From a virus: a stretch of DNA of 64,000 nucleotides. The notes under the pieces were generated by a model that was not told where the DNA came from, made no database searches, and saw only the letters and a program-made list of their open reading frames with translations. Each line of letters opens with the position of its first letter. Position 1 is the first letter of the stretch. A program made the position numbers and the translations under genes. The stretch is from positions 1-64,000 of IMG/VR virus record IMGVR_UViG_3300024302_000005; one strand, 5' to 3'. Shown one piece after another: positions 11,700-56,114 of the stretch.

Positions 11700-12380
11700 A
11701 TAGGTATGCGCATATAAGCCTAAATCAATACAAATATCAACATTTAAATCGGTTTATTACTGTATACGACACTTAACGGCTGGTTTAATGTCGTATACGA
11801 CATTTAACTTTCTGTAACCCTTTGATAACACCCACTTTCTCAGCCCTAAGAATAAGAAGCGGAAAGACCTCCCTTCGTCGGTCTGTTCCTATAGGCTGCC
11901 GCCTCTGTATTTATATATTATATTTAATATATTCCGGGATATCCGTATTGCTTGGAACCCGCTTTCTTCGCTGCCTCTTGATCTACGCTCCCGCTGCGCT
12001 CCGCTCCGATCAATCGGGAGCTCGAAAGTCTTGGTTCCCGCAATACAGATATCCCTATTCCAGTAGCTCCAGCAAGAAGGCCGTCCCCACGACCATGATC
12101 CCCAACTTCGTAACAACTAACAATGTAAGCATATAAACTCCTACTTATTCCCCATGATAATTAATTATATAACATCTCTTAATTAATTTACCTAATTAGC
12201 TAAATAGGAAATTTCCTATTTATTCCAATAAGCTATTAAGCTTAATTATTTTTATTATTTTTATTTTTAATATTAGCCGACTTAAGCAATTTTTTATAAT
12301 TTAAGTCCGACTGCAGTACTAACTAGGCAGGCCAGCCTCACCGAAAATACCCCCGCCCCTATTTTGCCTTAACGTCCCTT
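11700..12380. other. non-coding strand-switch region, probable genome terminus / terminal repeat
   Basis: Divergent junction between gp69-side late genes and hairpin early promoters, as at N4 ends; very AT-rich at 12150-12310. Confidence 0.6.
11762..11808. repeat. 18-bp perfect palindrome overlapping a 16-bp direct repeat
   Basis: AATGTCGTATACGACATT at 11787-11804; GTATACGACAYTTAAC at 11762-11777 and 11793-11808. Confidence 0.8.
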
Positions 12381-12386
12381 TTACAC

Positions 12387-12406
12387 ACCTGCTATCGCAG
12401 GTCAGG
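12387..12406 (+). promoter_or_regulatory. virion-RNAP hairpin early promoter P1
   Basis: ACCTGC-TATC-GCAGGT-CAGG upstream of first early gene. Confidence 0.8.
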
Positions 12407-12686: not shown

Positions 12687-12706
12687 GCTTGCTATCGCAA
12701 GTAAGG
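12687..12706 (+). promoter_or_regulatory. virion-RNAP hairpin early promoter P2
   Basis: GCTTGC-TATC-GCAAGT-AAGG. Confidence 0.8.
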
Positions 12707-13251: not shown

Positions 13252-13271
13252 GCCCGCTATCGCGGGTTAGG
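13252..13271 (+). promoter_or_regulatory. virion-RNAP hairpin early promoter P3
   Basis: GCCCGC-TATC-GCGGGT-TAGG. Confidence 0.8.
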
Positions 13272-28570: not shown

Positions 28571-29261
28571 AGAGGAATATTTGGTAGGTGTCATCAACTC
28601 CATCGCCACCAAATACCCCGATCTAAGATATGACTCCAAAGCTCCTACCTTCGCACTGCAATATATGGGCACAGCCTTTACCCTGCATAAGCGAAGTGGC
28701 TTCCCAATGCCACAGGCTATTGCTATCGAGAATTCATTCCATGAACTGTATGCAGTTTCGGATGAATTTAACGAGCGTAATAAGCAATTTATGATCGAGC
28801 ATGGCTATATCGAGTGTGCCTTTGGCCTTAAGCTAAGAACCCCGATAATTGCAAAGTGTGTGATGGGGACGTCCAAGACACCTTACGAAGCTGACCGAGA
28901 AGTGCGCAGTGCCAACAACGCAGTAACACAGTCTTGGGGCATGCTGTTAAACCGTGCAATGATCGCCGTAAACCGACGCATCGAAGCTAGTAAATACCGG
29001 TTCGATATCTTTCCGGTCAACATGATCCATGATGCAGGATACTTCAAATTTCGTGAGGATCCTAAAGTTATCCAATTTCTGAACAACGTTCTAATCGAAG
29101 AGATGCAATGGAACGATCACGATAAAATTAGATCAACAGAGGTCCCAATGATGGCTTCCCTTGAGATAGGGAAATCATGGGACAAACAATTCGAATTACC
29201 CAATAACGCTAGTATCGAGGAAATCAACGATGTCATTTCAACTATCTCAGGACCAGAATGA
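28554..29261 (+). CDS. polA: family A DNA polymerase, C-terminal part (motifs B and C)
   Basis: RYDSKAPTFALQYMG, RSANNAVTQS, MIHDAG; own AGGAG RBS. Confidence 0.9.
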   Translation: MKKITKEEYLVGVINSIATKYPDLRYDSKAPTFALQYMGTAFTLHKRSGFPMPQAIAIENSFHELYAVSDEFNERNKQFMIEHGYIECAFGLKLRTPIIAKCVMGTSKTPYEADREVRSANNAVTQSWGMLLNRAMIAVNRRIEASKYRFDIFPVNMIHDAGYFKFREDPKVIQFLNNVLIEEMQWNDHDKIRSTEVPMMASLEIGKSWDKQFELPNNASIEEINDVISTISGPE

Positions 29262-30525
29262 TGCCATTAGGGGCATCTGTGATATCTTCTTGGATATCAA
29301 TCTAGAGAAACATGCTCTGGCTGTCCTAACTGGATCTGCAGGGGTAGGTAAAACTACCGTGGTAGCTGAGATAATCGAGGCACTGCGGGCTAACTCTCCC
29401 GGCTTAAATATTGAGTTGTGCGCCAGTACCCATAGGGCTGCTGGGGTACTTCAAAATATTGTTGGAGGAGAAGTATCTACTGGTCACTCCCTGTTCAAGC
29501 TACGTCCATCTATTACCAAGTACGGCAAAGAAACTCTGAAGAGCACAGGCCCTTGTCTTATCCCAAATGGATCAGTCGTCATCATTGACGAATCTTCCAT
29601 GCTTGGGAATATATGGCTAAAGGCTGTGGTGGAAACTATTAAGGATCGACATCTGAAGATCCTGTTTGTGGGAGACCCATATCAGTTGGCACCTCCTAAG
29701 GACGTCTGTAGTATCTTCGATGGATCACTGCCTACCTTTACCCTGACCAAGGTACACCGCCAGGATATCGATAATCCTATCCTCAATAAAGCTATTGAGT
29801 ATCGTGATTTCATCCGCGGTGTTCGAGCTACAGAACCTACCCTGTCAACTGATCTAAATGAACTCGGCCAGGGTATTCAGATGCTGGAGCATGCTGACTT
29901 CGTTAGTGGGTTCGTCAAGCGGTATATTAATTACGTGGCCGGCGAAGAGGTGGATGTACCTTTATGCACATTCACTAACGAGTCTGCTATTAACTACAAT
30001 AGCATGATCCGGAAGGCTGCGTACTTCCTGGGAGATACTATCCTGCCCTTCTACGAAGGAGAGCGATTGGTATCCAATGCTATTGTTAAAAACGGTGACC
30101 GTGTTGCTTTAAACAACAACGAATCGGTGACTGTTATTAGCTACTCTACTGCAGACCATAAGGGTATTCCCGGCTACAATGTGAAGGTTCAGGGATCTGC
30201 TGATTCCTTCAACCGATCAGGGGTTAAGACAGTATTCTGCCCAGCCACTAAAGCTGCTGCAGACAAGATTTTAGATATCTGGTTGAAGGATGCTAAAAGT
30301 ACCAAGTCTTCAACGAACTGGATACAGTACTACGAGCTCAAGAATTCTCTGGCAGACCTGCGGCCGCCATTTGCCGGGACAACTCATAAGGCCCAGGGTG
30401 GCACCTATCATGCGGTATTTATCGATAGGGTAAATATCAATAAGTGCCATGACCCAATCACTCGGGCCCGGCTAATGTATGTAGCTCTTACTCGAGCTAG
30501 CACCAACGCATACGTCAACACTTGA
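29230..30525 (+). CDS. SF1B Dda/RecD-like DNA helicase
   Basis: GSAGVGKT, IIDESSM, GDPYQL, VHRQ, TTHKAQG, YVALTRA. Confidence 0.92.
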   Translation: MSFQLSQDQNDAIRGICDIFLDINLEKHALAVLTGSAGVGKTTVVAEIIEALRANSPGLNIELCASTHRAAGVLQNIVGGEVSTGHSLFKLRPSITKYGKETLKSTGPCLIPNGSVVIIDESSMLGNIWLKAVVETIKDRHLKILFVGDPYQLAPPKDVCSIFDGSLPTFTLTKVHRQDIDNPILNKAIEYRDFIRGVRATEPTLSTDLNELGQGIQMLEHADFVSGFVKRYINYVAGEEVDVPLCTFTNESAINYNSMIRKAAYFLGDTILPFYEGERLVSNAIVKNGDRVALNNNESVTVISYSTADHKGIPGYNVKVQGSADSFNRSGVKTVFCPATKAAADKILDIWLKDAKSTKSSTNWIQYYELKNSLADLRPPFAGTTHKAQGGTYHAVFIDRVNINKCHDPITRARLMYVALTRASTNAYVNT

Positions 30526-41012: not shown

Positions 41013-41182
41013 TGTGGAAAAACATTAAGTATTTCCTCTACACCCTGATTACTCTCGCCGTAGGTATCCCAGTGTTACTGGGCCTATGGTGGAGCATTCA
41101 GGTTGTTGTAGTCATCATCATCGGTGGACTAGTGTTTGTTGTTTACAAAATTTTAGATACTGAGCAAATTAAAAAGTCTTAG
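41012..41182 (+). CDS. small membrane protein (56 aa), not in ORF track
   Basis: TAATG overlap; two hydrophobic segments; converges on vRNAP stop. Confidence 0.55.
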   Translation: MWKNIKYFLYTLITLAVGIPVLLGLWWSIQVVVVIIIGGLVFVVYKILDTEQIKKS

Positions 41183-44100
41183 TAAACCAATCCCAGACAT
41201 CTTCGACGTTAGATGGGCCAGCTATTGTAGAGGCTGAATCTAGCAGGTCACCTTGTCCCAACAATGTTGGCATGAGGTTGCCTGTTAGAGGTCCGCTAGC
41301 GTTAGCTAAGGTCTCTACATCCAGGCCATACTGCATGCCAGCTGCAACACCAATACCAGTTGGCGATCGCTGCAGCATGTTACGCACTGATCTAATATTA
41401 CGAAGCTTATAGGTCAGGAATGGTGAGAAGCCCATGGAGTTTAGTACCTCCAGGATCGGGTGCATATTCTCATCAAACAGTACGAACTGATCGATAGCAT
41501 CATGCAGTGCGTCCTCAAAGGACTGCCCTTTCACATCCACTGCATGGCTAATCATTACATACCTACCCAAGAAATCAGTGATTTGCACGATTTTCTTGTG
41601 GGTACGGTAGACCTCACTATCTCTGTGCAAGACGATATTCTTCGCAATAGACGTCAGCTGACTAGGTATTTTGTCAGTATATTGTGTAACCTTATCCTGC
41701 TGCATGACACTGTTCATCCGGTTTAAATACCCCTTGGAAGATGACGTATTTACGTCCTCCACCACTAGGGAGTTAAGACCGAATGCGCTGAGCAGGTGAA
41801 TAGGGTTATTATTCACTTCAGCTGTTACAGCATCATACTCAGATTGCACTTTAGGCTTCTCGAGTACCGAGGCTACTTGCAGCTTTTGATGCAGATCTCT
41901 CTGCTTCTCGGTATCTGCCTCATATCTAATATACGCTTGATACCCTTCCCGCATCTTCTTAGCAGTGTATGCTGGGGAAATTCCGCGGATGGTTAGAGCC
42001 AGCAGGTTACTGACAAAGTTGTTAATCACCACCATCAATGTGGCCATTACAACACGCTCCATACCGAAGGACATTACCTCTCGGATGCCAGCATATCCCC
42101 TCCGAATAAACGTCTTCATCCAACCTAAAGATTCATTCTGCAGGAACTCAAGGTTAGCCGGGTTCAGGGCACTATACCCAAATGTCTTATACACAATATT
42201 TTCACGCACCATGAACTTACCGTCCAGGGAGAATTTGTGCATGTACTCTCTGACCTCCCTAGGGAGCTTACGGTACTGCTCATGATACTTGGACTTAGGA
42301 TCCAGGATATCCACAAACATCTTCTCATTGCCTGGATACACCTTCACCCACTCTTCGCCCAATACGTCTATAGTGGCTTTGTCTGCATCAATAGTGTTCT
42401 TCTTATTGATGTAGGAAGACCTCATGTGAGCAAACACATTCTGAAATTCCATATCAGGTTGGAAGATAGCTTCTACGCTATCTGCATTCATGATTACCCG
42501 GTAATCAACGATGTTATTCTTGCCATCCCGGATAGGGCTGAGACGTTGCTCTTCGTCTTCAATACCCATCTTCTCCAGATTTGATTCCCTCTTGTGGATC
42601 TTGGCAATGTGGGCCCGGATCGCAGATATATCTGGTGTCTTATCGGCTTTCTGGAACTTCTCATTTTTAGCTAAAATATCAGACAATAAGGTACCGCTGT
42701 GATGCAGACCAGTTGTCGACAGGATACCCGATACGTGGCGGTTCTCAGGCATCGATCTAGACACATACATCACGTTATGGGCCTGAGGTACTCCAGGGAT
42801 GTTACCCATCTTGTAAACGTGTGGGTAGCCCTTCCTGGCCATGGCTTTACGTTCCTCTGGAGTATCTACTCCAGTGATCATGTCGGTCAGGTCATCAATA
42901 CGATCTACAGTGAAACCCTTCTGGGTCTGGATACCGTTACCGTCAAATAGATTATCTAAAGACATAGCTACGAATGCCCTGTGCCTATTCAGCATAAACT
43001 CAAAGGCGTTGGTATCCGGATCAGCTTCGAGCTCTCTGGCCATCATATCTTTGACCACTGCATTATCTTCGCTCTTCTGACTAAGCAATGCAGACAGTGT
43101 AGCAATGGCATCCATTCTGCGGATGGTATTTGCGTTTAAGGCATCACCAGTAAGATACGTGGCCGCTATTGTGGATACGTTAAAATGCCCTTGTGGACGT
43201 TTACGCTTCTTGGTAGCCAAGAAATACCCCAACTCCATGGTGTATTTGAATGCCATAGATGTAGATTTAAGATTAGATGCTTTAGCTAATTTCTTGATCT
43301 CTTGCTTAATTAGAGCAGGATTGCCGATCAGCTTAACGATTTGCTGTGGTGTCATGCCTACGTCGTCAGCCAGTAGGCTCTGCAGATCAGTCTTCAATAC
43401 CACGCGGGTAATAGCTTCACGAGCTTGTTTGCTGATCTCTTCCGAGTTAACAGATTTCCATGCAGCATTCATGGTGCGCACGGAATCTCGCTCCACTTGT
43501 TGGAATAGCTTGTTAATATTCACCTTGGCAAACAGCAACCGCTTAATAAGCTTGAGCGTAAGAGCTCCTTTGCCTACTTCATCAGCCAATGCTTTAGTGA
43601 GACCGGTGATCTGACTGTACCCAGCAGTCACCATGGCGTCCCTAGCTGCACCTTCACCGAGAGCAGCGACACCAATAGCAGCAGCTGATCGGGAAACCTT
43701 ACCCAGTGCGTTATTAGGAGAAGCCTTAATAGCTTTGTGCACTGCAGCAGAGATGAACTCTCTGATCATCTTATCAGAGCCACGTACCAGATCTCTTGTC
43801 TTGGTCTCTAGCTTACTGGCTTGGGAATCATGCCTAGTCTGGATATCAATGAGAGATACCAAAATAGCTAGCGATTCCTCATGCGCATTCTCTTTGTTCT
43901 TACGAAAGATTACTCGAGTAAACGAATCTACTATTAGATCAATCAGGTGGACAAACCGGCCAGCTAAGGTCGTACCGCGGTCAGGCAATACCGTTGTGAA
44001 GCTTTGAGTGATCCGGATCATCGCAGGATTAGTAGTGGCATACGCCAAGAATTCTTCAGGGAGATGAGCAGCATCTGGACCAAATACATAATTGTATTGA

Positions 44101-47100
44101 TCCTTAGCTAGCTTGATCTCACTCGGAGTAGCAGTACCTGGGATATGGCTGAGGAAGGCTTTAAATCCTCCCTGCTTATCGACAAGCTTCTTGGTCTGCT
44201 TACGCACCTCACGGATCTGGTCACCTATCAGAGGGTTATCCCGAATAGCCTGAACAGTCATGGCATGCAGCAGTTCATGCGCATACACCTCCTGAGGAGA
44301 GTATTCGTTACGATTACCAGGCAACTGCCTGCTCAGAGATACCGTCATACGCTTGTTAACGCTATCGTAGGCACCTTGAGTAACCCCATTGATCTGTTCC
44401 ACCGTCATACGGACAGCACCTATGGAGTCCAATCCTCGGCCCATTGTGTCGATAATACGCTGTAGTGTAGCAGAGTGAGAGTCCATCTCTTGCTGGGTAC
44501 CGTAATAATGGCGAGAGATGTTCTTAAAGCGAGAGAGCAGAGCAGTGACACTAGCCTTCGTAATATCCTTGGAGAACACCGTCTTCTCATCGCTTTTCTC
44601 TTGGTTACCCAGAGAATTATACGCCTCTACCACAGCCTTTATGTCAGCATCGATAGTAGCTTGGGTCTCTCCAAGATCTACCGTTACCTCGTACTTACGT
44701 AGCTCAGCTTCCATCTTGGCAATGTTGCCATCATAGGCTGCTCCAACTTTGGCACGATAACCTTCCAAAATAGTGGTGTTATTCGTGGTATCCCCAGTCA
44801 GCAGACTAATAATTATTTCTCTTACATTAATCCGATCTTCCGTAGGGAACATCTCTTTGAGGGTCTCGGTCATTCCGCCGATGTACGGGTTATTTATGCT
44901 GTCTGCCAAAGCTATATTCACAAAATCACGAGCTGTTTCAGCAGTGTACTGAGCTAATATATTAGCTACTTCGTGAGGAGAATTGTTTCTGAACATCCCA
45001 GTAATGTAGTTACGCACGGAATCTGCAAGCCTAGCTACTGCAGGGTGGATCAGGAACATGGCCATCTTGTGAGCAGTACCAGCTGCCTGGATCTCTGCTA
45101 CAGCAGAGTCCATGGACTTACCAGCTTCAGGGTTAGTCTCGGACATATTAGGAATATACATCTGACTGGGCTCTAGACCCTCTGTAGATTCGATTTCTCT
45201 TAGCTCATCCTTCTTCTGAGTGGCTTCATTAGCATGTGAGATAACTACCTGCCGCAGCTCTGCAACATCTTTTTTATCTGTTCCTTCTAAAAACCGGTTA
45301 ACGTGCGCAGTGTCACGGATCCAGTTTTCTACCTCTGTCATCAAGGCAGTCCCGTTATCCGCATCCAACTGCTCAGTTGCAATAAGGACCTTCTCCATCT
45401 GATCTTTCATGATCAGAGACAAGTTCACATCAGGAGAGAGACCTAACCGCTTAAACTCTGCATTATATATTTCAGCAAATTCTGCTAATAGCTCAGGACG
45501 ACCAAATGCTGCATCGTACAGTGGCAGAAGGTGAGGTACTTTATCTAATGACAGAGCCAGCAAGGCAGCATCCGTATTGATAATACCTCGGATCAGCGCG
45601 CTAACTCCAGGTGCACTAAACGTCTGTTGCCGGGCAGTAGCCGTGACATCTCGGGTACCTCCGTCAACGTGATCTTGCACACGAACACTTACGGTATGAG
45701 CGTTGCTATCAGACTTATCCGATACCCGTTTACTCATATCAATAAATGAGTCTACGCCTGCGTCAGACAATGGGCCCTTATATTGTGGCAGCCACTTCTT
45801 CAGCCCATCCTGAACTAGAGCAACCGTCTCAGATTCAGTAAGGCTAGATCGTTTTTCATCAGCTAGTTTTTTATCCCTAGCTGCAATGAAATGTGCCATG
45901 AATACGGCATGCATGATCTCACCGGCTTGAACCACAGCCATCCGGTAATCCTTGGTATCTCCAAGGAGAGCATCCAATCCTCGAGCTAATCTAGGCTCAA
46001 TGATTTGCTTGATTACATTCTGGAAGATCTCTTCGTTAAACTCATGCCCCTTATGCATGTTGTTCTTGATCTTGTTGCCTACATTGTTGCCCATACCCAG
46101 GACATCCAACTGGCGTTCAAACTCTTCAATCTGCTTAGCACCCTCTACTTTGTCAGCAATATAGAGCCTACGCAGTACACCAATCTCTTGGTATAGATGA
46201 GAGATAATAGTTTTGGCCACCCCAGTAGCTACGGCAGGATTGCCGGCACCATACTGAGACATGACGAAAGGATACTTAGCTAGATCTCGTGCATCCTGAT
46301 CAGCTAGGTCAGGGAACAGGTAAGCAAGAGCCTGTGACCGTGCTACGTACGTCTCAGACAGCTTATCCAACCAATCCTGATCTTTGCCCTTCTCTTCTTC
46401 ATGGTACGTAAGGGCTACGTCCATTCCGGAATAGTGCTGAATTAGTGCACCCAGATCCATATAGGTATCGACAGGGATCTTGTCCCCATCATCCCTATCC
46501 TTATTAAGGGCGTGGATACCCCCCTCAAGGTGGGTGGTTTCCTCAGGTGTTTTACCAATATACACCGCAGTCTGGTTAAGGTGCTTCTCCAGAGTTTCCC
46601 GATCATTAAATGTAGGGAACTGGAATATGTTGATAGCAAACCCGTTAGCTACACCATCAATCTCCGCAGGGATATCAGACTCGAAGTTCATCTTGGGAGC
46701 TTCTGGGGCTACGGGAATAGCTTCACCGGTAGCCTTGGCGGTTTCTACTGCAACAGCATGCTTATCCATCGCCGTCATATGCGCCTTCCAGGCAGCATGG
46801 TAAGGAGCGTATATGGATAGGGCATGCAGGCCACCCAGGAGAGAGATATCAGCTCCTGAATATGGGCTATTTTCTTTGGTGTACAGTTTCAGAACTACAG
46901 CATTAAATTTCTCCATGTCCACTTTAGACATGTTGGAGTCAGCTGCCCTAAGAAGAGCTATGGCTTCCTGGATATCAGCATCTTCCATGTACTCATTGAA
47001 GGTGCTTACGATATTCACCGGTACCCGCTTATCTACTTTGTAGCCTAGGGCGTACATCGCAGCGAACTGGAACAGGTGCAGGTTCTCTTTGGTAAATGTG

Positions 47101-50100
47101 GTCGTCCCCTGTGGAGCAACGGCCCACCGCGTAAAGTGACTGTTCTGTGGGTTTACACCCAGACCAACCTGCATAATACGATGCTGAGACTGCAGGGCGT
47201 ATTTGAAGAAGAAGTTCTTCAGTTTGCCTGCCGTGCTAAATTTAAGAACACTATCCAGTGCATCTGTCTTACTGCCATTAGAGGCATTGGCCGAAGTAAC
47301 ATACGCCTTGGTGTCTGTTTTCTCATCTACGGGAACAACCCCCATCAGGAGTTCTACGGTACCCCGGAAATCTTCAGACATTGCAGCTATTAACGGCAAC
47401 GTAGAGGTTTCACCCCAGACTACATTCTGCAGTTTCTCTAGCACTTCACGCATCTTCTTTGGAACATCACCAAAGGATCTGCGGATGCTGCTAGCCGTAA
47501 ACTTTGCAGGAGCCTGCAAAGGAGCTGAATTAGAGTCGTTCTCTGCACCATCAGTCAGCACACTAATTGCTGCATTATTTAGTTCAGTGCTTTTCTCGAG
47601 CTCCTCTACGGAACCCTGCTCAACAGCGTGAGTAATATGTTTGTATTGCTGTCCGTGAGTAAAGTTCCTGCCATCACCTTCTTCGGATTCAGCAACTTCT
47701 TTAGCTTGTTGGGGCGTATACCCAAAATCCCATTTGCCGACGTTAACATTAATGAATGCTACGGTACTGCCAGGAACCTGTGCTTCGTTATTTATGATCT
47801 CAAAGGCCATGGATCCCAGGGCAGTACCTAAAGAATCCACGTAAGCAGCAGTGTATTTACTGCTAGCTGAAATACCCAGGGATGCCAGGATGACATTAGC
47901 TACAGACTGCACAGCTTGTTTGTGATCTAGGCCGACCCCTTCGAGGGCATTATAGTCAGTTGCAGATAGTGCCCTACGCCGATCGCCGTACAGGAACTCC
48001 CCTTTTTCTTGGTCTGAAGATAGCGGATTATCATTAGTATTTTGAGCAATCCAGTTCTGAGCACCCATCATCAAGGCAAACACCACCTGAGGGGGCAGCA
48101 CGGCTTCCCCTGTGAGCACTGTCTTACCGTCTTCGACTTTGGTAGAGAACTGCTCAAGGAGCCTCAGAGGGGTCTTCAGGGCAGGGGCAAAGCCATTACC
48201 TGCTATGTAATCGTCAGAAGTAACCAGATTAGCGTAGGCAGCAGCGTAAGCAGTATACCGGTTAGCGTACAGCTCAGCGCCTTCATCACTTAGCCCGATA
48301 GCCCGCAAGGCATCCATCAGTGTCTGAGGACTGTTGAAAGCCTCTGACGGGATGTTAAACAGCCCTACCCGCTTCTTGGTAATTTTTACCAGTTCAGCGA
48401 AGGTTTTATTCTTGAGGGTAATACCTGATTTGGTAGAACCCATGATCTGCTGATTAACGAATTCGGATACGAAGCTTACCGTAGCATCCAATACAGGCAA
48501 GGTTTCGGTCAGGATGAGTTTCTTAAACTCACCTGCCTTCTTGCCTACCTTAGTACCCGCCTTTTTAATGGGGGTGCTGAAAGTCTCGTTAGCTTGCCCG
48601 GTCTCTACCAGCAGCATACCACTGGCTTCGAACACCTGACCTAACAAGGTATTGTCTGTTTTAGCTAGACCTAACAATTTAGAGACACTGGCAACCAACT
48701 GAGACCAGATAGAGCCCTTGGGCTTAGCTGCATTAGGTAGATCGATTGCCTTCATATCCATCAGCAGACGCTGAAGATGCTTGTTGGTCAGGCCGTACGT
48801 CATTAACTCGTCAGCATGCTTAATTGTAGTGAGCCTATTAAGCATGCTTTTATCATAGTCAGAAACATTATTAGCAGGATCCGCAACATACTCTTTGATG
48901 TGCGCAGCAATGGCTTCTAGTTGAGCTACAGCATCTCGTTGAGTTTGACTGTTAGGGGATTTGAATGCACTAACGGCTGCCACATGCAGTAGTTCATGCA
49001 GAGTAAGCTCTTCATTTAAGGCACCGGGACTAAGCGTAACTAGCTTAGCAACTACTTCTCCGGTTCCCTCTATAAGATCGTAGTCAACATACCCGTCAAA
49101 TTCTTCATCTTCTCGCTGTACTCGCACACCTGTGTATTGAACCTTTACAGCACCTACTTTACCAACCAAGGCTTTAGCGAGCTCTACATAGGCGGGGTTA
49201 GTAGCTGTATCAATAAGCTGCTGAAGCAAGACATTCGCTGTTGTGCCCTTCTTGATTAGGGCAATTACTTTGTCCGTTAAACTAGCGGAGTCATAGTCCT
49301 TCTGGCGTTGGGTTAGCTCGGTAGTGCTGGCAGCAGTAACCGTGCCTTCAGGAGCACTTTCCACCTTCTCTGTGGTGTCTGCACCGACATTGGTATTCTG
49401 TGAGCTAAAGTTAATGGAGTCCGCGGACACTTCAGTAGAGCCGGCATTCCTATTAGCAGAATGCATAACCAACTTATCCGTAGGACGGCTGGTAGCCACA
49501 TAGAGTGCCTGATAGCTATTCTTGGGAGAACCATTGGTCCACCCGCCAATGCTATTCAGGCCATCCTCCATAACATACACATTACGGTACGTAGAGCCTT
49601 GGGCCTTCCAGGCAGTGATCGCGTATGCAGGATGCATCTCGATATTAGCTATGCGAGATACAGCGACATTCTGCTCTTTGAACTTGGTGTACTGCTCTGC
49701 ATTTAGACGTTTTTTAGCCTTAGCGTATTCAGCTGAAATAGCCTCTTGCAACGTCTTTCCATCAGGGAAAGTATCCGTATCAGTTACAGCAGGAATTCGT
49801 GTTTTTATTTCCTCGCCGTTAATAAGGTCCCTCATCAGGACCTCTTGATACGGAATAGATACCCCTTCAAATTCCAGGTGCTCCACCTCACCTACTTCAA
49901 GGATTTCATATTCACTACTATTCCAGATAGCTGCATCGCCCTCATCCTTGGGCTGCAACTTCACAGTGGAATAGGACATCAACACATCACCTACAGCATG
50001 GATGCCGTAGACACGGGTATCGCCAAACAACCGCTCAAAGATATCTCTGTTCAGATTAAAGACAGAGGCACCTTGGTTCCGATTATTCTCATTAAATGCC

Positions 50101-53100
50101 GTAACGATCCGAGTGCTTAATGGGTTCAGCAAGTAATCTTTAACGAAGGAGGTAGCTACGAATTCAGCGTCTCCGGTAAATATGACACCAGAGTTAGTAG
50201 ATTCTGAGAAATTAGTCTTCCGGTCACCTTTAGTGATCAGAACCGCTTTCTCTTTGATCTTCTCTTGCAGCGTCTTAACATCATCCAAGACAGCAGTGAA
50301 CAACCCAGTAAGCCCTAAGATAGGAGACTTACCAATTTGCCGCTGAGGCTTGAGTAACTTGACCCGGTTAGGGTATTCAGCTTCATCGAAGACAGGGCTA
50401 TTAGAGTTACGGCCGAACAGGGCACTAGCAGCAACCTTGAGAGCTTCTTTAGCTGAACGAATAGGTGCCAGCTGTGCAGAATCACCGAGGAAGAGTACTT
50501 TTATACCACGTTCCGCGGCTTTCTCTTTAATCAGCTGGGTCATGTTCTCACCCAGCATCGATGCTTCATCGACAACCAGTAATTTAATGCCCTCTAGCTT
50601 ATCACCATCCAGATCTTCAATATCCTCTAGACCCTCTTTCCTCTGTTTTTCATCAGTAGGAATGAGACCTAAAGCAGTCCAGATAGTACTGGCTTCCTCG
50701 CCGGTAGCCTTAGCTAGGATAGCTTTAGCTTTATTAGTGGTGGCTGTGTACAGAATTTGTTTCTTGGTCAAGCCAGAGTTTTCGATGATCTTGCTAACAA
50801 CAGTGGTTTTACCAGTGCCACCACGACCTTCAAGAACAAATTCCCTAATAGCTGATCCGGTATCTTTCAGCCAATCACCAATCTTGTCGATCGCTACCCG
50901 CTGTTCAGCGTTAGCGTATCCACCAGGAACCACCTCATATTTAGGCTCTTTGATGACTGTGTCATCTTCAGCTACCGTATCTTCTTCTGTCTCCGATACC
51001 TCCCCAGCAGGGACGTCCTCTGTTTCGGCTGCCTCAACATCTGGAGACTCTTCTGTGTTGTCCGGAGTTCCGTCCTGGTCCGCAGCATCATCTCCCGCAT
51101 CAATATTAGCCGGTGGAGCGTCTGGGGGAGGTGGGTTCTGCTCAGATACCCCTTCTTGTTCAGAAGATGTATCGCCAGCTGTGCTGCTAGCTGTATCAGG
51201 TGCAGCCTCAGCTGAGACGGTTTCCGTGCCTTCAAGATCGTTAATTGCATCTACGTCCTCTTCGGTAATATCTTCAGCTGTTCTGTTTTCTTCCTGTGCG
51301 TTTAATTCCTCTACGGCAGCAGCTAATGCCACTGCTTCTCGCGTAGCAGCAGCAGCAGTCTGAGCGAAGGTGGTGTCCTTGTGGCCCATGGCCAGCTTGA
51401 ACATAGCTTCACCGTAATCAGCTTCCTTGCTGACGGTACCAATGAACTCACCAGAGTTCTGGTGGATCTCGTATACATATTCTTTATTGTCTCGAGCTAT
51501 TTTGAATGACTCTGCGGTCATCTCAGTATCTTGGGTGTACTCCATTACCCGGTTACCGCCAGCAGCGACATTACCTCTTACGTATACCGGTTTCCCTGTC
51601 TTAGCTTCCTTCTTGGCAGCAGCCACAAAAGCATTATGCTTACGACGAATATTACCAGAGTGCACAGACATACGCTGAAGAGAAGTCTTCATGGCCAGTA
51701 CTGCAGGAGCATTACCTGGATCAGCTAGTAGTGTCTTTGCCGCGGTATTGATCTCGTCGAAATACGTGTTGAAACCTTTCCAACGGGTAGAGGTACCATC
51801 GATGCTCTCTTGGTGTACGTCTTCAGAGCTCTTACCGGCTTTAGTTAATACAGCCTTCTCTATTTCAGTTAGCTCTTTACCCAGTTTCTGGGTAATTTTC
51901 AGGTTCTCTACCTGGGCTTTATCTGCTTTGGTCTTGGCTTCTTTATCAGCTTTTTCAATAACAGCAGGAGCTACATCCTCCCCAGATATGACATTACGGA
52001 AAGTACCATCTTCTTTTTCCGCAGCAGCCGCTTCCTGTTCCTCAGCCTCTTTAGTAGCTACAGCAAGTGTAGCCAGGAATTCAGTTTTCTTAGCTTCTTT
52101 ACGGGCAATTTGTGCCTCTGTCAAAGCTCTCTTACCTACCCGTTGTAGAGTAGCTAAAGACTCTTTAAGAGTCTCCGGATTGTCAGTTATGGTGTCGAGG
52201 GCAGCATCTAATTCAGTATCGGTAATCTCCGATACGGCCAGTGCTTCCTCAGCCGCAGTCTTAGCAGCTTCAGCTGCTTTAGTCTCCGCTACCTCGGGGC
52301 GTACCCGTTCAGGCAAAGCGTCATATTCTGCTTGTACAGCTGCACGGTCCTCTGCGGTGAACTCTGGATTCTCAGCAGTTAGCTGCTCCAGTAGATCAGC
52401 ACGTTCAGCCAGAATAACCTCTTTATTGGGGTGATTAGGCGTATCTTTGAGGATTTGCTCGATCACATCAACACGTTCATTAATGGCATCACCCGCAGGT
52501 GTACCTTGAACAGTTTCTGATTGAGCTAATTGCTCACGCAATCCTGCAGCTCTGGATTTAGCAGTAGCTGCTTTAATAGGAGTTACGACAGCTGCTTTGG
52601 TTACTCCAATAGTTGCTCGTGCAGCCACCATGGCGCTTACACCACCAGGAGTACCTAGAGCTTCTGCCAAGGCATCATGAGCAATTGCACCGGTATCTGT
52701 GATCTTACCAGCTTGAGCTAGCTGTTCGGCCGTAGCAGTAATACCACCAGATACACCCTCACCAACCAGCGCTAGTGTTGGGCGCACTATGGTTAGATTA
52801 GCTATAGAAGCTGGTAGAGATTTATTTACAGCTCTAACTGTTTTCTGTACCCAATTAAGGCGAGCTATTGGGATGGCTTTAAGTGCAGCCATATCACCAA
52901 ATTTCTCAGCCACTGTGGCTACAGCAGACCATGCTTTAATTCGGCCAAGTTCTTTAGCTGAAGGCTCTCTGTTATTAGTAGTCCTGAATTCCTCTATAGC
53001 TTGGTTACCTTTACCAACAGCAAGTGACGTCAGAATAGCTGACTGCGCAATTGGACCACCAACAGTGAAGGCAATCATGTAGGGAACGCTGTCTATACCA

Positions 53101-53915
53101 GATTCCAAGAATGTACCTAGATCGTTAGTGACAGCGTTCCATGCTGCAGCCCAATTACCGTCGTTCTTAGCGATAACTTCAAATGCCTTTTGTGCTGTTA
53201 ATTGATCAGCACGGTTAACAGGGACATGTTTCTTTACACCCTTACCGAAGGCTTCAATGGCATCAAATTGAGCTTTATTTGTTGTAGCTTGTTTGTCGAG
53301 CTCAGCAATTCTTTTATGTTTGCTGGTAGCCCGGAAAGTATCATCAGACTCCGTACGTTCAACGTCTTGACCTAAAGTACGATAAGTCTCCAACTCCTGA
53401 GGAGTAACCACTTCATCCAGGCGGTTAAACCGCTTGGCACGTTGGTTGTGGAGATCTACTTCATTATTGAGAGTAGTGTTACCTGTGAAGGCAGAAGCGC
53501 CCTGAACTCCCAGGTCTACGGCCGTACTGGCTATGCCATGTACCCGGTTGCCTGCATTGCCAATAGGAGCAAAGTCCTCGATAGCCTGATTCTCTTGGGC
53601 ATCCCGGATGGCGTATGTTTTAGCTGTTAGTTCATCAAGTCCGCGGACTACGTTACCTGCAGTATTCTTGACCGAATAGGTACCGTCTTGGTGCTTGGTT
53701 ACATTACCTTGCCGATTTACAACAGGAGAAGCAGGTTCATCTGTGTAGATGTTTTGATTATTAATTCCTTGGATTACATCATTTACGGAATCATCAGCAG
53801 CTAGTTCCATATGCATACCCACTAAGCTCCCTTGCTTAGCAGACTGTATTGCTGATTTTGCAGAACGTACTCGTTGGGCTATCGATTGTTTAGCGGCAGA
53901 GACAGGACCAGCCAT
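41169..53915 (-). CDS. virion-encapsidated RNA polymerase (N4 gp50-like) with embedded SF1B helicase and two HExxH domains
   Basis: 4248 aa, no Cys seen; RNAP motifs EIDGVANG, RDLAKYPFVMSQYG, LYD; helicase motifs near aa 1000-1485; HELLH twice. Confidence 0.93.
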   Translation of the reverse strand: MAGPVSAAKQSIAQRVRSAKSAIQSAKQGSLVGMHMELAADDSVNDVIQGINNQNIYTDEPASPVVNRQGNVTKHQDGTYSVKNTAGNVVRGLDELTAKTYAIRDAQENQAIEDFAPIGNAGNRVHGIASTAVDLGVQGASAFTGNTTLNNEVDLHNQRAKRFNRLDEVVTPQELETYRTLGQDVERTESDDTFRATSKHKRIAELDKQATTNKAQFDAIEAFGKGVKKHVPVNRADQLTAQKAFEVIAKNDGNWAAAWNAVTNDLGTFLESGIDSVPYMIAFTVGGPIAQSAILTSLAVGKGNQAIEEFRTTNNREPSAKELGRIKAWSAVATVAEKFGDMAALKAIPIARLNWVQKTVRAVNKSLPASIANLTIVRPTLALVGEGVSGGITATAEQLAQAGKITDTGAIAHDALAEALGTPGGVSAMVAARATIGVTKAAVVTPIKAATAKSRAAGLREQLAQSETVQGTPAGDAINERVDVIEQILKDTPNHPNKEVILAERADLLEQLTAENPEFTAEDRAAVQAEYDALPERVRPEVAETKAAEAAKTAAEEALAVSEITDTELDAALDTITDNPETLKESLATLQRVGKRALTEAQIARKEAKKTEFLATLAVATKEAEEQEAAAAEKEDGTFRNVISGEDVAPAVIEKADKEAKTKADKAQVENLKITQKLGKELTEIEKAVLTKAGKSSEDVHQESIDGTSTRWKGFNTYFDEINTAAKTLLADPGNAPAVLAMKTSLQRMSVHSGNIRRKHNAFVAAAKKEAKTGKPVYVRGNVAAGGNRVMEYTQDTEMTAESFKIARDNKEYVYEIHQNSGEFIGTVSKEADYGEAMFKLAMGHKDTTFAQTAAAATREAVALAAAVEELNAQEENRTAEDITEEDVDAINDLEGTETVSAEAAPDTASSTAGDTSSEQEGVSEQNPPPPDAPPANIDAGDDAADQDGTPDNTEESPDVEAAETEDVPAGEVSETEEDTVAEDDTVIKEPKYEVVPGGYANAEQRVAIDKIGDWLKDTGSAIREFVLEGRGGTGKTTVVSKIIENSGLTKKQILYTATTNKAKAILAKATGEEASTIWTALGLIPTDEKQRKEGLEDIEDLDGDKLEGIKLLVVDEASMLGENMTQLIKEKAAERGIKVLFLGDSAQLAPIRSAKEALKVAASALFGRNSNSPVFDEAEYPNRVKLLKPQRQIGKSPILGLTGLFTAVLDDVKTLQEKIKEKAVLITKGDRKTNFSESTNSGVIFTGDAEFVATSFVKDYLLNPLSTRIVTAFNENNRNQGASVFNLNRDIFERLFGDTRVYGIHAVGDVLMSYSTVKLQPKDEGDAAIWNSSEYEILEVGEVEHLEFEGVSIPYQEVLMRDLINGEEIKTRIPAVTDTDTFPDGKTLQEAISAEYAKAKKRLNAEQYTKFKEQNVAVSRIANIEMHPAYAITAWKAQGSTYRNVYVMEDGLNSIGGWTNGSPKNSYQALYVATSRPTDKLVMHSANRNAGSTEVSADSINFSSQNTNVGADTTEKVESAPEGTVTAASTTELTQRQKDYDSASLTDKVIALIKKGTTANVLLQQLIDTATNPAYVELAKALVGKVGAVKVQYTGVRVQREDEEFDGYVDYDLIEGTGEVVAKLVTLSPGALNEELTLHELLHVAAVSAFKSPNSQTQRDAVAQLEAIAAHIKEYVADPANNVSDYDKSMLNRLTTIKHADELMTYGLTNKHLQRLLMDMKAIDLPNAAKPKGSIWSQLVASVSKLLGLAKTDNTLLGQVFEASGMLLVETGQANETFSTPIKKAGTKVGKKAGEFKKLILTETLPVLDATVSFVSEFVNQQIMGSTKSGITLKNKTFAELVKITKKRVGLFNIPSEAFNSPQTLMDALRAIGLSDEGAELYANRYTAYAAAYANLVTSDDYIAGNGFAPALKTPLRLLEQFSTKVEDGKTVLTGEAVLPPQVVFALMMGAQNWIAQNTNDNPLSSDQEKGEFLYGDRRRALSATDYNALEGVGLDHKQAVQSVANVILASLGISASSKYTAAYVDSLGTALGSMAFEIINNEAQVPGSTVAFINVNVGKWDFGYTPQQAKEVAESEEGDGRNFTHGQQYKHITHAVEQGSVEELEKSTELNNAAISVLTDGAENDSNSAPLQAPAKFTASSIRRSFGDVPKKMREVLEKLQNVVWGETSTLPLIAAMSEDFRGTVELLMGVVPVDEKTDTKAYVTSANASNGSKTDALDSVLKFSTAGKLKNFFFKYALQSQHRIMQVGLGVNPQNSHFTRWAVAPQGTTTFTKENLHLFQFAAMYALGYKVDKRVPVNIVSTFNEYMEDADIQEAIALLRAADSNMSKVDMEKFNAVVLKLYTKENSPYSGADISLLGGLHALSIYAPYHAAWKAHMTAMDKHAVAVETAKATGEAIPVAPEAPKMNFESDIPAEIDGVANGFAINIFQFPTFNDRETLEKHLNQTAVYIGKTPEETTHLEGGIHALNKDRDDGDKIPVDTYMDLGALIQHYSGMDVALTYHEEEKGKDQDWLDKLSETYVARSQALAYLFPDLADQDARDLAKYPFVMSQYGAGNPAVATGVAKTIISHLYQEIGVLRRLYIADKVEGAKQIEEFERQLDVLGMGNNVGNKIKNNMHKGHEFNEEIFQNVIKQIIEPRLARGLDALLGDTKDYRMAVVQAGEIMHAVFMAHFIAARDKKLADEKRSSLTESETVALVQDGLKKWLPQYKGPLSDAGVDSFIDMSKRVSDKSDSNAHTVSVRVQDHVDGGTRDVTATARQQTFSAPGVSALIRGIINTDAALLALSLDKVPHLLPLYDAAFGRPELLAEFAEIYNAEFKRLGLSPDVNLSLIMKDQMEKVLIATEQLDADNGTALMTEVENWIRDTAHVNRFLEGTDKKDVAELRQVVISHANEATQKKDELREIESTEGLEPSQMYIPNMSETNPEAGKSMDSAVAEIQAAGTAHKMAMFLIHPAVARLADSVRNYITGMFRNNSPHEVANILAQYTAETARDFVNIALADSINNPYIGGMTETLKEMFPTEDRINVREIIISLLTGDTTNNTTILEGYRAKVGAAYDGNIAKMEAELRKYEVTVDLGETQATIDADIKAVVEAYNSLGNQEKSDEKTVFSKDITKASVTALLSRFKNISRHYYGTQQEMDSHSATLQRIIDTMGRGLDSIGAVRMTVEQINGVTQGAYDSVNKRMTVSLSRQLPGNRNEYSPQEVYAHELLHAMTVQAIRDNPLIGDQIREVRKQTKKLVDKQGGFKAFLSHIPGTATPSEIKLAKDQYNYVFGPDAAHLPEEFLAYATTNPAMIRITQSFTTVLPDRGTTLAGRFVHLIDLIVDSFTRVIFRKNKENAHEESLAILVSLIDIQTRHDSQASKLETKTRDLVRGSDKMIREFISAAVHKAIKASPNNALGKVSRSAAAIGVAALGEGAARDAMVTAGYSQITGLTKALADEVGKGALTLKLIKRLLFAKVNINKLFQQVERDSVRTMNAAWKSVNSEEISKQAREAITRVVLKTDLQSLLADDVGMTPQQIVKLIGNPALIKQEIKKLAKASNLKSTSMAFKYTMELGYFLATKKRKRPQGHFNVSTIAATYLTGDALNANTIRRMDAIATLSALLSQKSEDNAVVKDMMARELEADPDTNAFEFMLNRHRAFVAMSLDNLFDGNGIQTQKGFTVDRIDDLTDMITGVDTPEERKAMARKGYPHVYKMGNIPGVPQAHNVMYVSRSMPENRHVSGILSTTGLHHSGTLLSDILAKNEKFQKADKTPDISAIRAHIAKIHKRESNLEKMGIEDEEQRLSPIRDGKNNIVDYRVIMNADSVEAIFQPDMEFQNVFAHMRSSYINKKNTIDADKATIDVLGEEWVKVYPGNEKMFVDILDPKSKYHEQYRKLPREVREYMHKFSLDGKFMVRENIVYKTFGYSALNPANLEFLQNESLGWMKTFIRRGYAGIREVMSFGMERVVMATLMVVINNFVSNLLALTIRGISPAYTAKKMREGYQAYIRYEADTEKQRDLHQKLQVASVLEKPKVQSEYDAVTAEVNNNPIHLLSAFGLNSLVVEDVNTSSSKGYLNRMNSVMQQDKVTQYTDKIPSQLTSIAKNIVLHRDSEVYRTHKKIVQITDFLGRYVMISHAVDVKGQSFEDALHDAIDQFVLFDENMHPILEVLNSMGFSPFLTYKLRNIRSVRNMLQRSPTGIGVAAGMQYGLDVETLANASGPLTGNLMPTLLGQGDLLDSASTIAGPSNVEDVWDWFTKTF

Positions 53916-53936
53916 GGTTATAATATCCCATTGGTA

Positions 53937-55628
53937 TTAAGGGTTCAGTAGTTTTTGCAGTGCCGTGTTAGACAATACTTTATTTTGCATTGCCGCTGGA
54001 AGTTGGTCCATAAGAGCTTGTAATAGTACGTCTTTACTAAGACCGGAAACATCTCCCTTATGTAGACCACCAGAGTCCCCATACCCAGGAAGATACAAAT
54101 CATTTCGATCTATGGTATCGCTGTCTCCAATGGTGTTATTCAGGACCTTTACTACGGCTACACTAATTGCAGTGGAGGAGATACCCGCTTTGCTTAACAA
54201 ATTCTGTGCTTTAGCCATTACGTTTTTAATGACCCTACGTGTTTTAGCACCATCAACAGTGGCTTCACCTGTAGAGGTAAAGCGTTGATTCAATGAGTCT
54301 GCAAGCTCTCCGTAGGAGCCTGTACGTAGTTTGCTGGCAAAGCCCAGTTCGACTTTGGTAGCACCAAGGTTAGCTTCAACAGCTGCTTCATTTAGATCCT
54401 TTACCTGCTTATCTTTGGCGTCTACCTGGGCAAGGAAAGAGCTAACATTTGGATCAGATTTAATATGTTGTTTAGCTATCTGGGCAAGATGGCGTTCTGA
54501 TAGCCCCTTGTTCTCGGGTTTACCACGAAGACCAGATACAATCTTGGATTCTAACGTAGCACGTAAATTCTTAGGAGCAGCCAAGATAGCTGCAGACATT
54601 CTACCAGTAGTATAGGCAGCCAGTACACCTTGAGTTACTACACCTCCAAGGGCATTTCGTGCACTAGAAAATGTCTGGATCTGAGCCCCTCCCGGAACTG
54701 TCGCAAGTATTGCTGCACCCGTCTGGGAGCTAAGAGAATCTTTAGTAGCCCGAGCAATTCGGGCAGTCATATCTGCAGACAGCTCTCTGGTACTCTGCAT
54801 TTCTTCCAGTTTACCCAAGGCAGCATTACGCTCGGCCGTAGTCTTACCAGGATCCGCAAGGGTATCCAGGAGAGGCTGAGCCTTGGTGTCATTGGTAAAG
54901 ACTGTTTTTTGTTTAGCTAAATCACGAAGACTTTTTGCACGGGTTTCTTCCGTAAGGGTAGCGTCATCCCGAATACGTTTTTGCTCTTGGTTAAAAGCAA
55001 TACGGGCCCGAAAGTCTTTAGCAGCATTTATTTGAGATGTAATCTCATCACGTTCGTTCTTGTCTCTGGCAAATTCCAGAGAATCTTCCAGTTGCCGTAA
55101 CCGCTTGGGATCTGCTTTTTCGTTAAATTCAATTTCTTGTTTGGTCTTTTTACGAGCAAGTTCAGCAGTATTCCGCTGGGATTCTGCTGTTAACCGTTGG
55201 GATGCAGAGGTTAGCAGGTCATCTGCTTTACCAGCTTCATCACTTTCAAAGGATGCTTGATCACGCACTTCTTGACGATCTAACCGAAGGTTCTGGTCGA
55301 CAGCACGTTGTTCATCAGCTACCCGGAAATCCTGATTCTGTAGATCTGTGACAGCAGAGGTAACTGCACTATCATCCATGAAGGCTCGTGTAGCTTCATC
55401 AGCTTGCTGAACTGCATTCTTGCGGTCAGCATCTGTAGGCAAAGACTGCAAATAGGATACAAACTCTGCAGTATCCCGTTTGGTCTTCTCATCGCTGAAG
55501 TCCTGTACTTCATCACCAAGCCCACTAATAGCGTCTCCAAGACCTTTGCCCGCATCACTGAAGGCCCTGAGAGATGCACCATGATTAGGACCAGACACAT
55601 TTCTCCAGGTAATAGGCGTTGCCATCAA
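53937..55628 (-). CDS. internal virion / ejection protein (N4 gp51-like)
   Basis: PITWRNV N-terminus, helical, no Cys seen, directly upstream of vRNAP. Confidence 0.75.
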   Translation of the reverse strand: MMATPITWRNVSGPNHGASLRAFSDAGKGLGDAISGLGDEVQDFSDEKTKRDTAEFVSYLQSLPTDADRKNAVQQADEATRAFMDDSAVTSAVTDLQNQDFRVADEQRAVDQNLRLDRQEVRDQASFESDEAGKADDLLTSASQRLTAESQRNTAELARKKTKQEIEFNEKADPKRLRQLEDSLEFARDKNERDEITSQINAAKDFRARIAFNQEQKRIRDDATLTEETRAKSLRDLAKQKTVFTNDTKAQPLLDTLADPGKTTAERNAALGKLEEMQSTRELSADMTARIARATKDSLSSQTGAAILATVPGGAQIQTFSSARNALGGVVTQGVLAAYTTGRMSAAILAAPKNLRATLESKIVSGLRGKPENKGLSERHLAQIAKQHIKSDPNVSSFLAQVDAKDKQVKDLNEAAVEANLGATKVELGFASKLRTGSYGELADSLNQRFTSTGEATVDGAKTRRVIKNVMAKAQNLLSKAGISSTAISVAVVKVLNNTIGDSDTIDRNDLYLPGYGDSGGLHKGDVSGLSKDVLLQALMDQLPAAMQNKVLSNTALQKLLNP

Positions 55629-55640
55629 TCTTCTCCTAAA

Positions 55641-56114
55641 TTAACCGCCAACGAGCTGAAGGTGGCTGATATCTGTATTGGCTTGAGTACCTTGAATGTA
55701 CCGTTGACGTGCACGAATTTGGTTATTAATGGTGGTTTCCTGGTTAGCCAGGTTGGCATCAGCAATTCTGCTCTCTTGAGCAAAGGCTTTCTTGGCAAGA
55801 CCTAAGGACTTAATAGATGCCCAACCTTGAGCTAATCGACCAAGTCCACCGAGGACACTACCTGCAGCGCCAAGGGTACCTTGGTTAAATCCGAATCCTT
55901 GTTTCTGACTATTAAAGTCAGGAATATTTGCTTTATTCAATCGAACCCGATCAGCAATTACTCTATTTTGCTCGCTTAGATCATTAGCTTGGGCAGTAAC
56001 ACCAAGCGGGACTTGAAGTCCCTGTATAGATCCATACCCACCTTGCCCAAAGTTATTAACGTCCTCATCAATATCTTCAAACTGACCGGTCTGAGCATTA
56101 TACTTACGTACCAT
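55641..56114 (-). CDS. internal virion / ejection protein (N4 gp52-like)
   Basis: Gly-rich amphipathic segment, LAKKAF...N..NQ...INNQI..RQR. Confidence 0.75.
   Translation of the reverse strand: MVRKYNAQTGQFEDIDEDVNNFGQGGYGSIQGLQVPLGVTAQANDLSEQNRVIADRVRLNKANIPDFNSQKQGFGFNQGTLGAAGSVLGGLGRLAQGWASIKSLGLAKKAFAQESRIADANLANQETTINNQIRARQRYIQGTQANTDISHLQLVGG

Follow-up and report, generated by a model that had tools for sequence, protein, structure and literature searches.

A predicted superfamily 1B helicase cassette recurs in N4-type and crAss-type virion RNA polymerases

IMG/VR record IMGVR_UViG_3300024302_000005 is a virus genome of 75,502 bp, rated 100% complete, from an uncultured marine phage in seawater. 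We analyzed positions 1 to 64,000 of this record (hereafter, the window), with a focus on the gene for the virion RNA polymerase (vRNAP) of the phage and on a putative superfamily 1B (SF1B) helicase domain embedded in it. The vRNAP gene occupies 41169..53915 on the minus strand, where a single open reading frame (ORF) without an internal stop codes for 4248 amino acids (aa). PHROGs identify the product as a virion RNA polymerase (phrog_2206, E 6e-176), and the gene sits in an ejection-protein operon within the structural module, in synteny with Escherichia phage N4. The start of the gene (window 53790-53960) is ambiguous: the ATG at 53915 has a weak ribosome-binding site, and an alternative ATG at 53816, which is the start in the public gene call, has a better Shine-Dalgarno sequence upstream (AAGGGAG) and would yield a protein of 4215 aa.

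The vRNAP has a beads-on-a-string layout that comprises an N-terminal domain (NTD), an acidic linker, an SF1B helicase, a Ser/Thr-rich linker, an accessory domain, an RNA polymerase (RNAP) core, and a putatively zincin-like C-terminal domain (CTD), all on the minus strand. The NTD (aa 1-865; 51321..53915) matches the NTDs of related proteins in a local profile search and corresponds to the lipid-binding N-terminal domain in N4 gp50, from which its role is taken (PMC13434306). The low-complexity linker that follows (aa ~866-989; 50949..51320) lies where N4 has its NTD-RNAP linker, consists of 30-42% Asp plus Glu, and has no Lys or Arg across aa 880-960. It is succeeded by the helicase domain (aa 990-1495; 49431..50948) and then by the Ser/Thr-rich linker (aa 1496-1540; 49296..49430), at which end the structural model described below falls under a predicted local distance difference test (pLDDT) score of 50. 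The composition of both linkers agrees with the original prediction, which had placed an acidic linker before the helicase and a Ser/Thr linker after it. Next comes an accessory 'mid' domain (aa 1541-1900; 48216..49295) that carries HELLH at aa 1648-1652 and is present in some relatives too; it had no Pfam match, and a protein-language search returned unnamed viral clusters together with a weak lead to LPD1, a polyvalent-protein domain.

The remainder of the protein comprises a T7-like single-subunit RNAP core (aa ~1920-2840; 45396..48158) and a CTD in two parts. Part 1 of the CTD (aa 2850-3500; 43416..45368) contains an HExxH motif (H3221/E3222/H3225) that is invariant among 12 vRNAPs, and is putatively zincin/MPTase-like based on alignment and on Iyer et al. 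(2017); Pfam gave only weak matches (SprT-like, E 0.035; Peptidase_M91, E 0.1). Part 2 (aa 3501-4248; 41172..43415) is homologous to residues 2757-3477 of N4 gp50. With a helicase, an RNAP, and two HExxH regions in one ORF among structural genes, the vRNAP has the makeup of a polyvalent protein.

The uninterrupted ORF carries SF1B motifs Q to VI, in order and at the place where they had been predicted: NAEQ (aa 1002-1005), GRGGTGKTT (aa 1030-1038; window 50802-50828), ATTNKA (aa 1058-1063), VVDEASM (aa 1114-1120), GDSAQLAP (aa 1144-1151), QRQ (aa 1191-1193), AYAITAWKAQGSTY (motif V; aa 1430-1443), and LYVATSRP (aa 1471-1478). Pfam matched AAA_30 (E 8e-20), AAA_19, and PIF1 to the domain, with UvrD_C_2 below the gathering cut-off, and PHROGs matched it to Dda-like helicases (E 6e-60). 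An alignment of 42 sequences revealed invariant or near-invariant columns at the Q-motif residue Q1005, the Walker A lysine K1036, the Walker B pair D1116/E1117, G1144/D1145/Q1148 of motif III, R1192, Q1439/G1440 of motif V, and the arginine finger R1477. An AlphaFold2 model of aa 986-1505 had a mean pLDDT of 85.3 and a predicted template modeling (TM) score of 0.87, and its best structural match in Foldseek was T4 Dda (3UPU; E 7e-25, target TM score 0.78), followed by DSH9, RecD2, RecD of RecBCD, and Pif1 (entries including 8JX6 and 3GPL). The predicted fold comprises RecA-like domains 1A and 2A and a beta-rich 2B region, and would match solved SF1B enzymes over their full length. Together, motifs and model point to a complete SF1B helicase, and the sequence is apparently that of a catalytically active enzyme.

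The phage also encodes a standalone Dda-like helicase of 431 aa in its replication module (29230..30525, plus strand; PHROG E 4e-77). Since this copy coexists with the fused helicase and is only 26% identical to it, the fused domain is neither a recent copy nor a relocated replication gene, the latter as the original prediction had held.

An assembly chimera at the edges of the helicase is excluded by independent contigs that bridge them and by recurrence of the fusion in diverged relatives. A 22.9-kb contig from one run, which may be the source sample, spans the region without a difference. Contigs from other runs, including 2025 libraries of other studies, bridge the junction between the helicase and the downstream domains (48574-49842), and contigs from other runs likewise bridge the junction between the linker and the helicase (50713-51028), with zero differences in both cases. 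Neither junction shows contig joints or loose ends, and diverged proteins of other assemblies have this architecture too. DNA nearly identical to that of the phage (window 47500-52500) is present in 2018 seawater runs and in 2025 RNA libraries, although contigs cannot show transcription. A diverged variant around 48030-48220 is also present in one of the 2025 runs.

Homology of the RNAP region to N4 gp50 required a local profile, since pairwise searches missed it. BLASTP against N4 gp50 detected similarity confined to the last ~160 aa, a phmmer search of the PDB with the RNAP region as a single sequence returned nothing relevant, and a megablast of the vRNAP gene against deposited phages returned no match. 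A profile built from relatives aligned aa 1939-2713 with gp50 1143-1871 and aa 3501-4224 with gp50 2757-3477 (E 6e-118). In this profile alignment, N4 residues R1421, D1556, K1667, Y1675, and D1948 correspond to R2246, D2420, K2547, Y2555, and D2801 of the window protein; these we take to be the catalytic residues of gp50, and their numbering was checked against the N4 sequence. They map within window 45.5-47.2 kb, where the polymerase core had been predicted to lie, and T7-like core features are present in the form of the T/DxxGR Arg, the motif A Asp, the motif B Lys/Tyr, and the motif C Asp. Based on these alignments, the protein is best described as a genuine N4-type virion RNA polymerase, and because all five N4 catalytic residues align, the polymerase looks active.

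To place the helicase among its relatives, the helicase region was searched against 5.8 billion proteins, and HMMER was used against 1.84 billion cluster representatives, with matches classed by local profiles. At least 24 N4-type proteins besides the window protein have the helicase, and its placement follows three or more distinct layouts. The helicase precedes the RNAP in the window protein and in P0003, P0004, P0005, P0006, P0018, P0127, P0144, and P0230; it lies between the RNAP and the CTD in P0030, P0031, P0040, P0199, and P0244; and partial ORFs comprise the RNAP and helicase only, or the helicase and CTD only. The fusion had originally been put forward as novel. This stands for deposited phages, among which tblastn probes that joined helicase and RNAP, helicase and CTD, or RNAP and helicase detected no N4-type fusion at the sensitivity of tblastn; it does not stand as a claim of uniqueness, given the metagenomic N4-type proteins listed here.

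A scan of IMG/VR with the helicase as a single protein returned no relative, whereas an alignment-based scan did find relatives. Among 64 related loci surveyed in IMG/VR, 20 encoded a full-length vRNAP, and the helicase was present in two of these (L026 and L044); overall, it occurs in about 10-15% of full-length relatives. In L026, the helicase follows the RNAP on a protein of 5963 aa. The closest relative of the window protein, at 45% identity overall, is L044 (IMGVR_UViG_3300004460_000078), in which the vRNAP is split (L044:9983-23453) into an NTD-helicase protein of 1700 aa and an RNAP-CTD protein of 2747 aa. Between the two genes lie a TAA stop codon and a spacer of 124 nt, and the second has a start codon of its own. 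Since L044 encodes the helicase on a separate NTD-helicase protein, a covalent link between helicase and polymerase is not required. L044 and about ten other relatives also keep the separate Dda-like replication helicase.

In a phylogeny of the CTD, proteins with and without the helicase are interspersed even among close sisters, and the sister vRNAPs P0122, P0125, and P0126 are without a helicase. The helicases of the window protein and P0003 share 55% identity, yet the RNAP and CTD of the same pair are only ~22% identical; conversely, the window helicase is ~40% identical to the helicase of P0005, yet the CTDs of that pair are 48% identical. An approximately unbiased (AU) test rejected the grouping of the CTD tree for the helicase (p 0.007). 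Because the helicase and CTD trees conflict, these phylogenies indicate that the helicase is an optional, exchangeable cassette that has been repeatedly gained, lost, and moved.

The window helicase belongs to a derived subclade, together with those of P0003, P0004, P0005, P0006, P0127, and P0143, that has three changes in common. The 1B beta-hairpin, or 'pin', of Dda bears an aromatic wedge residue. In the window protein and its six closest relatives, this region, which separates motifs Ia and II, contains no aromatic residue, and it was modeled with a pLDDT of 51-55 and no predicted hairpin. The His of motif V, which is kept in 246 of 259 relatives, is replaced by Trp in the subclade (aa 1436), and a near-invariant Arg/His is replaced by Phe (aa 1293). 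The ATPase motifs are intact in every member of the subclade, at 38-56% identity, and for this reason the changes probably represent functional re-tuning of nucleic-acid contacts rather than decay.

Outside of the N4-type proteins, nearly every other giant protein with this helicase clade contains a DFD[VI]D motif. One of these, P0009 (4467 aa), matched the crAss-like virion RNAP phi14:2 gp66 (PDB 6VR4) across the DFD[VI]D region (E 8e-28) and carries its helicase at aa 3950-4420. A profile of the crAss RNAP region identified 139 helicase-bearing proteins, all 139 of which contain DFDxD. In 131 of these proteins the helicase lies downstream of the RNAP, in many cases at the very C-terminus. 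In the sets gathered here, 139 of 145 helicase-bearing proteins of at least 3000 aa have an N4- or crAss-type RNAP. A search unbiased by length detected an RNAP of either type in 58 of 149 top cluster representatives (16 N4-type and 42 crAss-type). The 530-aa 'standalone' helicase P0148 matches the helicase-bearing end of the 4467-aa P0009 almost exactly; since some short matches are such contig-truncated fragments of giants, counts of standalone relatives are inflated.

A fusion of the crAss type already stands, unremarked, in a reference record: gp14 of crAssphage cr118_1 (RefSeq NC_055872.1; L069:1684-16524), a protein of 4946 aa annotated as 'exonuclease V', comprises a crAss-type RNAP (DFDID at aa 3209) and a helicase of the same clade (aa 4434-4917). 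Collectively, these comparisons suggest that the association of this helicase clade with two non-homologous families of virion RNAP is convergent. As a separate observation, the 4248-aa vRNAP contains no cysteine, nor do 13 of 14 other N4-type vRNAPs checked (3300-5000 aa); cysteines do occur in the standalone helicase and in crAss-type giants.

The gene order around the vRNAP is N4-like and includes a major head protein, gp57-, gp53-, and gp52-type genes, an N4-type RNAP II, a gp43-type primase, and the Dda-like replication helicase. Upstream of the vRNAP gene on the minus strand are an ejection-protein gene of 563 aa at the position of gp51 (53937..55628), which was assigned by position alone and had no PHROG match, and a gp52-like ejection protein of 157 aa (55641..56114; phrog_2646, E 3.5e-12) that is also supported by N4 synteny. 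Three hairpin motifs on the plus strand are candidate early promoters: CCTGC-TATC-GCAGG (12388..12401), CTTGC-TATC-GCAAG (12688..12701), and CCCGC-TATC-GCGGG (13253..13266). Both these motifs and the early genes are oriented rightward, starting from an AT-rich non-coding region. This region (window 11700-12350) separates the leftward late genes from the rightward early genes, contains a near-repeat, GTATACGACA[CT]TTAAC, ~30 bp apart, and is possibly a genome end or an origin.

N4 gp50 of the Schitoviridae is the closest described counterpart of the window protein, with which it shares the beads-on-a-string plan, the catalytic residues, CTD homology, HExxH, neighbors of the gp51/gp52 type, and hairpin-type promoter candidates. 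N4 gp50 differs in that it is 3500 aa long and has a linker of ~100 aa where the window protein has a 506-aa SF1B helicase and an extra domain of ~360 aa. In agreement with the original prediction that N4 gp50 has no described helicase domain, the N4 structure paper mentions neither helicase nor ATPase (PMC13434306). The resemblance to T4 Dda, RecD2, and Pif1 extends to all SF1B motifs and to a full-length match of the predicted fold; unlike these enzymes, the window helicase is embedded in a 4248-aa protein, is ~18-19% identical to Dda, lacks an aromatic residue in its pin region, and has the Trp and Phe substitutions described above. T7 gp4 primase-helicase and Pol theta also combine a nucleic-acid motor with template-dependent polymerization on one chain, but differ in belonging to other helicase superfamilies and polymerase types. 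To our knowledge, no helicase-polymerase or helicase-primase of the T7 gp4 or Pol theta kind is a virion-injected transcription enzyme.

Polyvalent proteins likewise are giant multi-domain proteins delivered with the DNA, and relatives of the window protein bear PolyVal and LPD domains. Iyer, Burroughs, Anand, de Souza, and Aravind (2017; PMC5512222) listed the N4 vRNAP among them, with MPTase as a fusion partner and, in some cases, ART, lysozyme, or PBECR domains as well. In contrast to the protein described here, the helicases in the main text of that study are SWI2/SNF2 (SF2) and rare UvrD-like enzymes, with none in an N4-type RNAP, and Dda, RecD, and SF1 do not occur there as words. The crAss-like giants (cr118_1 gp14, with phi14:2 gp66, PDB 6VR4, as the RNAP reference) share with the window protein the same helicase clade and a virion-packaged RNAP that prefers single-stranded DNA (ssDNA), but have a non-homologous two-barrel DFDxD polymerase, usually have the helicase after the RNAP, and belong to phages of the order Crassvirales. 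Searches of the N4, Schitoviridae, and Crassvirales literature outside of subscription-only papers turned up no helicase described in an N4- or crAss-type virion RNAP. What is new here is thus an undescribed, recurrent SF1B helicase cassette in polyvalent virion RNAPs; polyvalent proteins themselves are already known.

Both polymerase families share an in vitro template requirement that bears on the role of the helicase. Host single-stranded DNA-binding protein (SSB) takes part in promoter use by the N4 vRNAP. That enzyme transcribes denatured N4 DNA and not native double-stranded DNA, and host gyrase has been invoked to explain the extrusion of its hairpin promoters (PMC13434306). Similarly, crAss gp66 strongly transcribes ssDNA or denatured DNA and shows no transcription on double-stranded M13 DNA (preprint 10.1101/2020.03.07.982082). 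In a 2026 cryo-EM study, N4 gp50 was described as three units on flexible linkers, namely a lipid-binding NTD, a low-complexity tether of ~100 residues (907-1006), and the RNAP with its CTD; the NTD helps to build an inner-membrane complex and anchors the enzyme, and the RNAP-CTD remains on its tether as it refolds in the cytoplasm (PMC13434306). The window helicase and the ~360-aa HELLH domain occupy the position of this NTD-RNAP tether and, because of that, the helicase would be the cytoplasmic module nearest to the membrane channel after ejection.

Recruitment of one helicase clade by two non-homologous injected RNAPs, both limited to single-stranded template, is most simply explained if the helicase provides such template at the site of DNA entry, a role that we consider to have an even chance of being correct. 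The whole protein would be packaged and ejected like N4 gp50, with the NTD staying at the inner membrane within the ejectosome and the helicase refolding nearest to the emerging DNA end. The SF1B helicases Dda, RecD2, and Pif1 move 5' to 3'. A motor of this kind would step along one strand and, if loaded on the 5'-ended non-template strand of the early region, would travel in the same direction as transcription, peeling the duplex and leaving the template strand single-stranded such that hairpin promoters could form. The neighboring ssDNA-dependent RNAP would then initiate and elongate on the exposed template, and membrane-tethered stepping could also help to reel DNA in. The geometry is consistent with this scheme, since 5' to 3' movement on the non-template strand is the direction of transcription and the hairpin motifs and early genes point rightward. 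The net result would be a pre-loaded template-opening module with less reliance on host supercoiling and SSB; a lower dependence on host gyrase and SSB is what we infer purely from the scheme. A broader version of this proposal holds that N4- and crAss-type RNAPs each repeatedly recruited a Dda-like helicase because both read only ssDNA, and that the motor allows early transcription to begin on incoming linear duplex DNA independently of host gyrase and SSB, possibly reels in DNA, and was re-tuned in the subclade of the window protein. We put this version forward tentatively, as somewhat more apt to fail than to hold in full.

Several observations weigh against template supply. The spread of the helicase is patchy, and most such phages manage without it, as the helicase-free sisters and 18 of the 20 full-length IMG/VR relatives attest. 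Its position also varies, from before the RNAP to after it to a separate NTD-helicase polypeptide in L044, which disfavors a fixed geometry between helicase and RNAP. Classical strand separation may be altered in the subclade, given that the pin aromatic is absent, the pin is poorly modeled, and two near-invariant positions are changed. Lastly, the helicase may occur on RNAP giants simply because proteins of this kind are the chief injected carriers in the two phage groups, and the same carriers bear unrelated effectors (ART, kinase, NADAR, AlkB-like, and SLT domains).

The last of these points leads to the possibility that the vRNAP is only a delivery vehicle, a polyvalent injected protein on which the helicase rides as generic cargo. 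The helicase would then act independently of transcription in an early conflict with the host, for instance by clearing restriction, Cas, or nucleoid proteins off the entering DNA or by blocking DNA ends from RecBCD-type nucleases. N4-type vRNAPs are recognized polyvalent proteins with variable add-ons (PMC5512222), relatives bear SLT, 2OG-Fe(II) oxygenase, ART-PolyVal, Kinase-PolyVal, NADAR, and LPD domains beside the same helicase, and the patchy spread, variable position, and exchange between lineages indicated by the AU test are typical of arms-race cassettes. Yet a role as cargo would not in itself account for one clade on two non-homologous virion RNAPs that both require a single-stranded template, no anti-defense family was matched, and no known defense target is implicated. 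We regard this explanation as possible but less likely than template supply.

It is improbable that the helicase is primarily a motor for genome internalization, fixed to the inner membrane through the NTD and reeling DNA in, with transcription aid secondary. The helicase directly follows the membrane-binding NTD, L044 encodes an NTD-helicase apart from the RNAP, and the power source of N4 genome entry is still open (PMC13434306, discussion). Nevertheless, the predominance of crAss-type proteins with the helicase after the RNAP (131 of 139) does not fit such an anchor, SF1B enzymes translocate on single strands such that reeling of a duplex would require a free 5' tail, and most relatives lack the helicase. 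A pre-loaded replication or recombination enzyme, which would start replication or end processing before phage gene expression, is very improbable. The closest characterized homologs (Dda, RecD2, and Pif1) are replication and repair helicases, and the N4 CTD has been associated with replication of the genome (PMC13434306, discussion), but the phage, L044, and about ten other relatives all retain a separate helicase in the replication module, and N4 replication comes after middle gene expression (PMC13434306). Even when combined, a DNA-entry motor and a pre-loaded replication helicase account for a small share of the probability. The idea that the domain arose as an artefact of assembly, or is an inactive remnant in decay, can be dismissed, since the subclade changes in the pin region and in motif V are a weak hint only, both junctions are covered with zero differences by the 22.9-kb contig and several independent contigs, and the architecture persists among members as diverged as those of the subclade with their ATPase motifs intact.

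The source of single-stranded promoters and template on an injected duplex is a decades-old question in N4, for which the accepted answer is host gyrase and SSB, and it is open for crAss-like phages. The naturally occurring fused, split, and helicase-free sister forms described here offer a direct experimental handle on template opening. They also add an SF1B helicase to the known repertoire of modules in polyvalent injected proteins, and allow the annotation of giant virion polymerase genes, for example as 'exonuclease V', to be corrected. Finally, convergent fusion of the same helicase clade to two non-homologous RNAP families hints at a general rule and not at an isolated curiosity.

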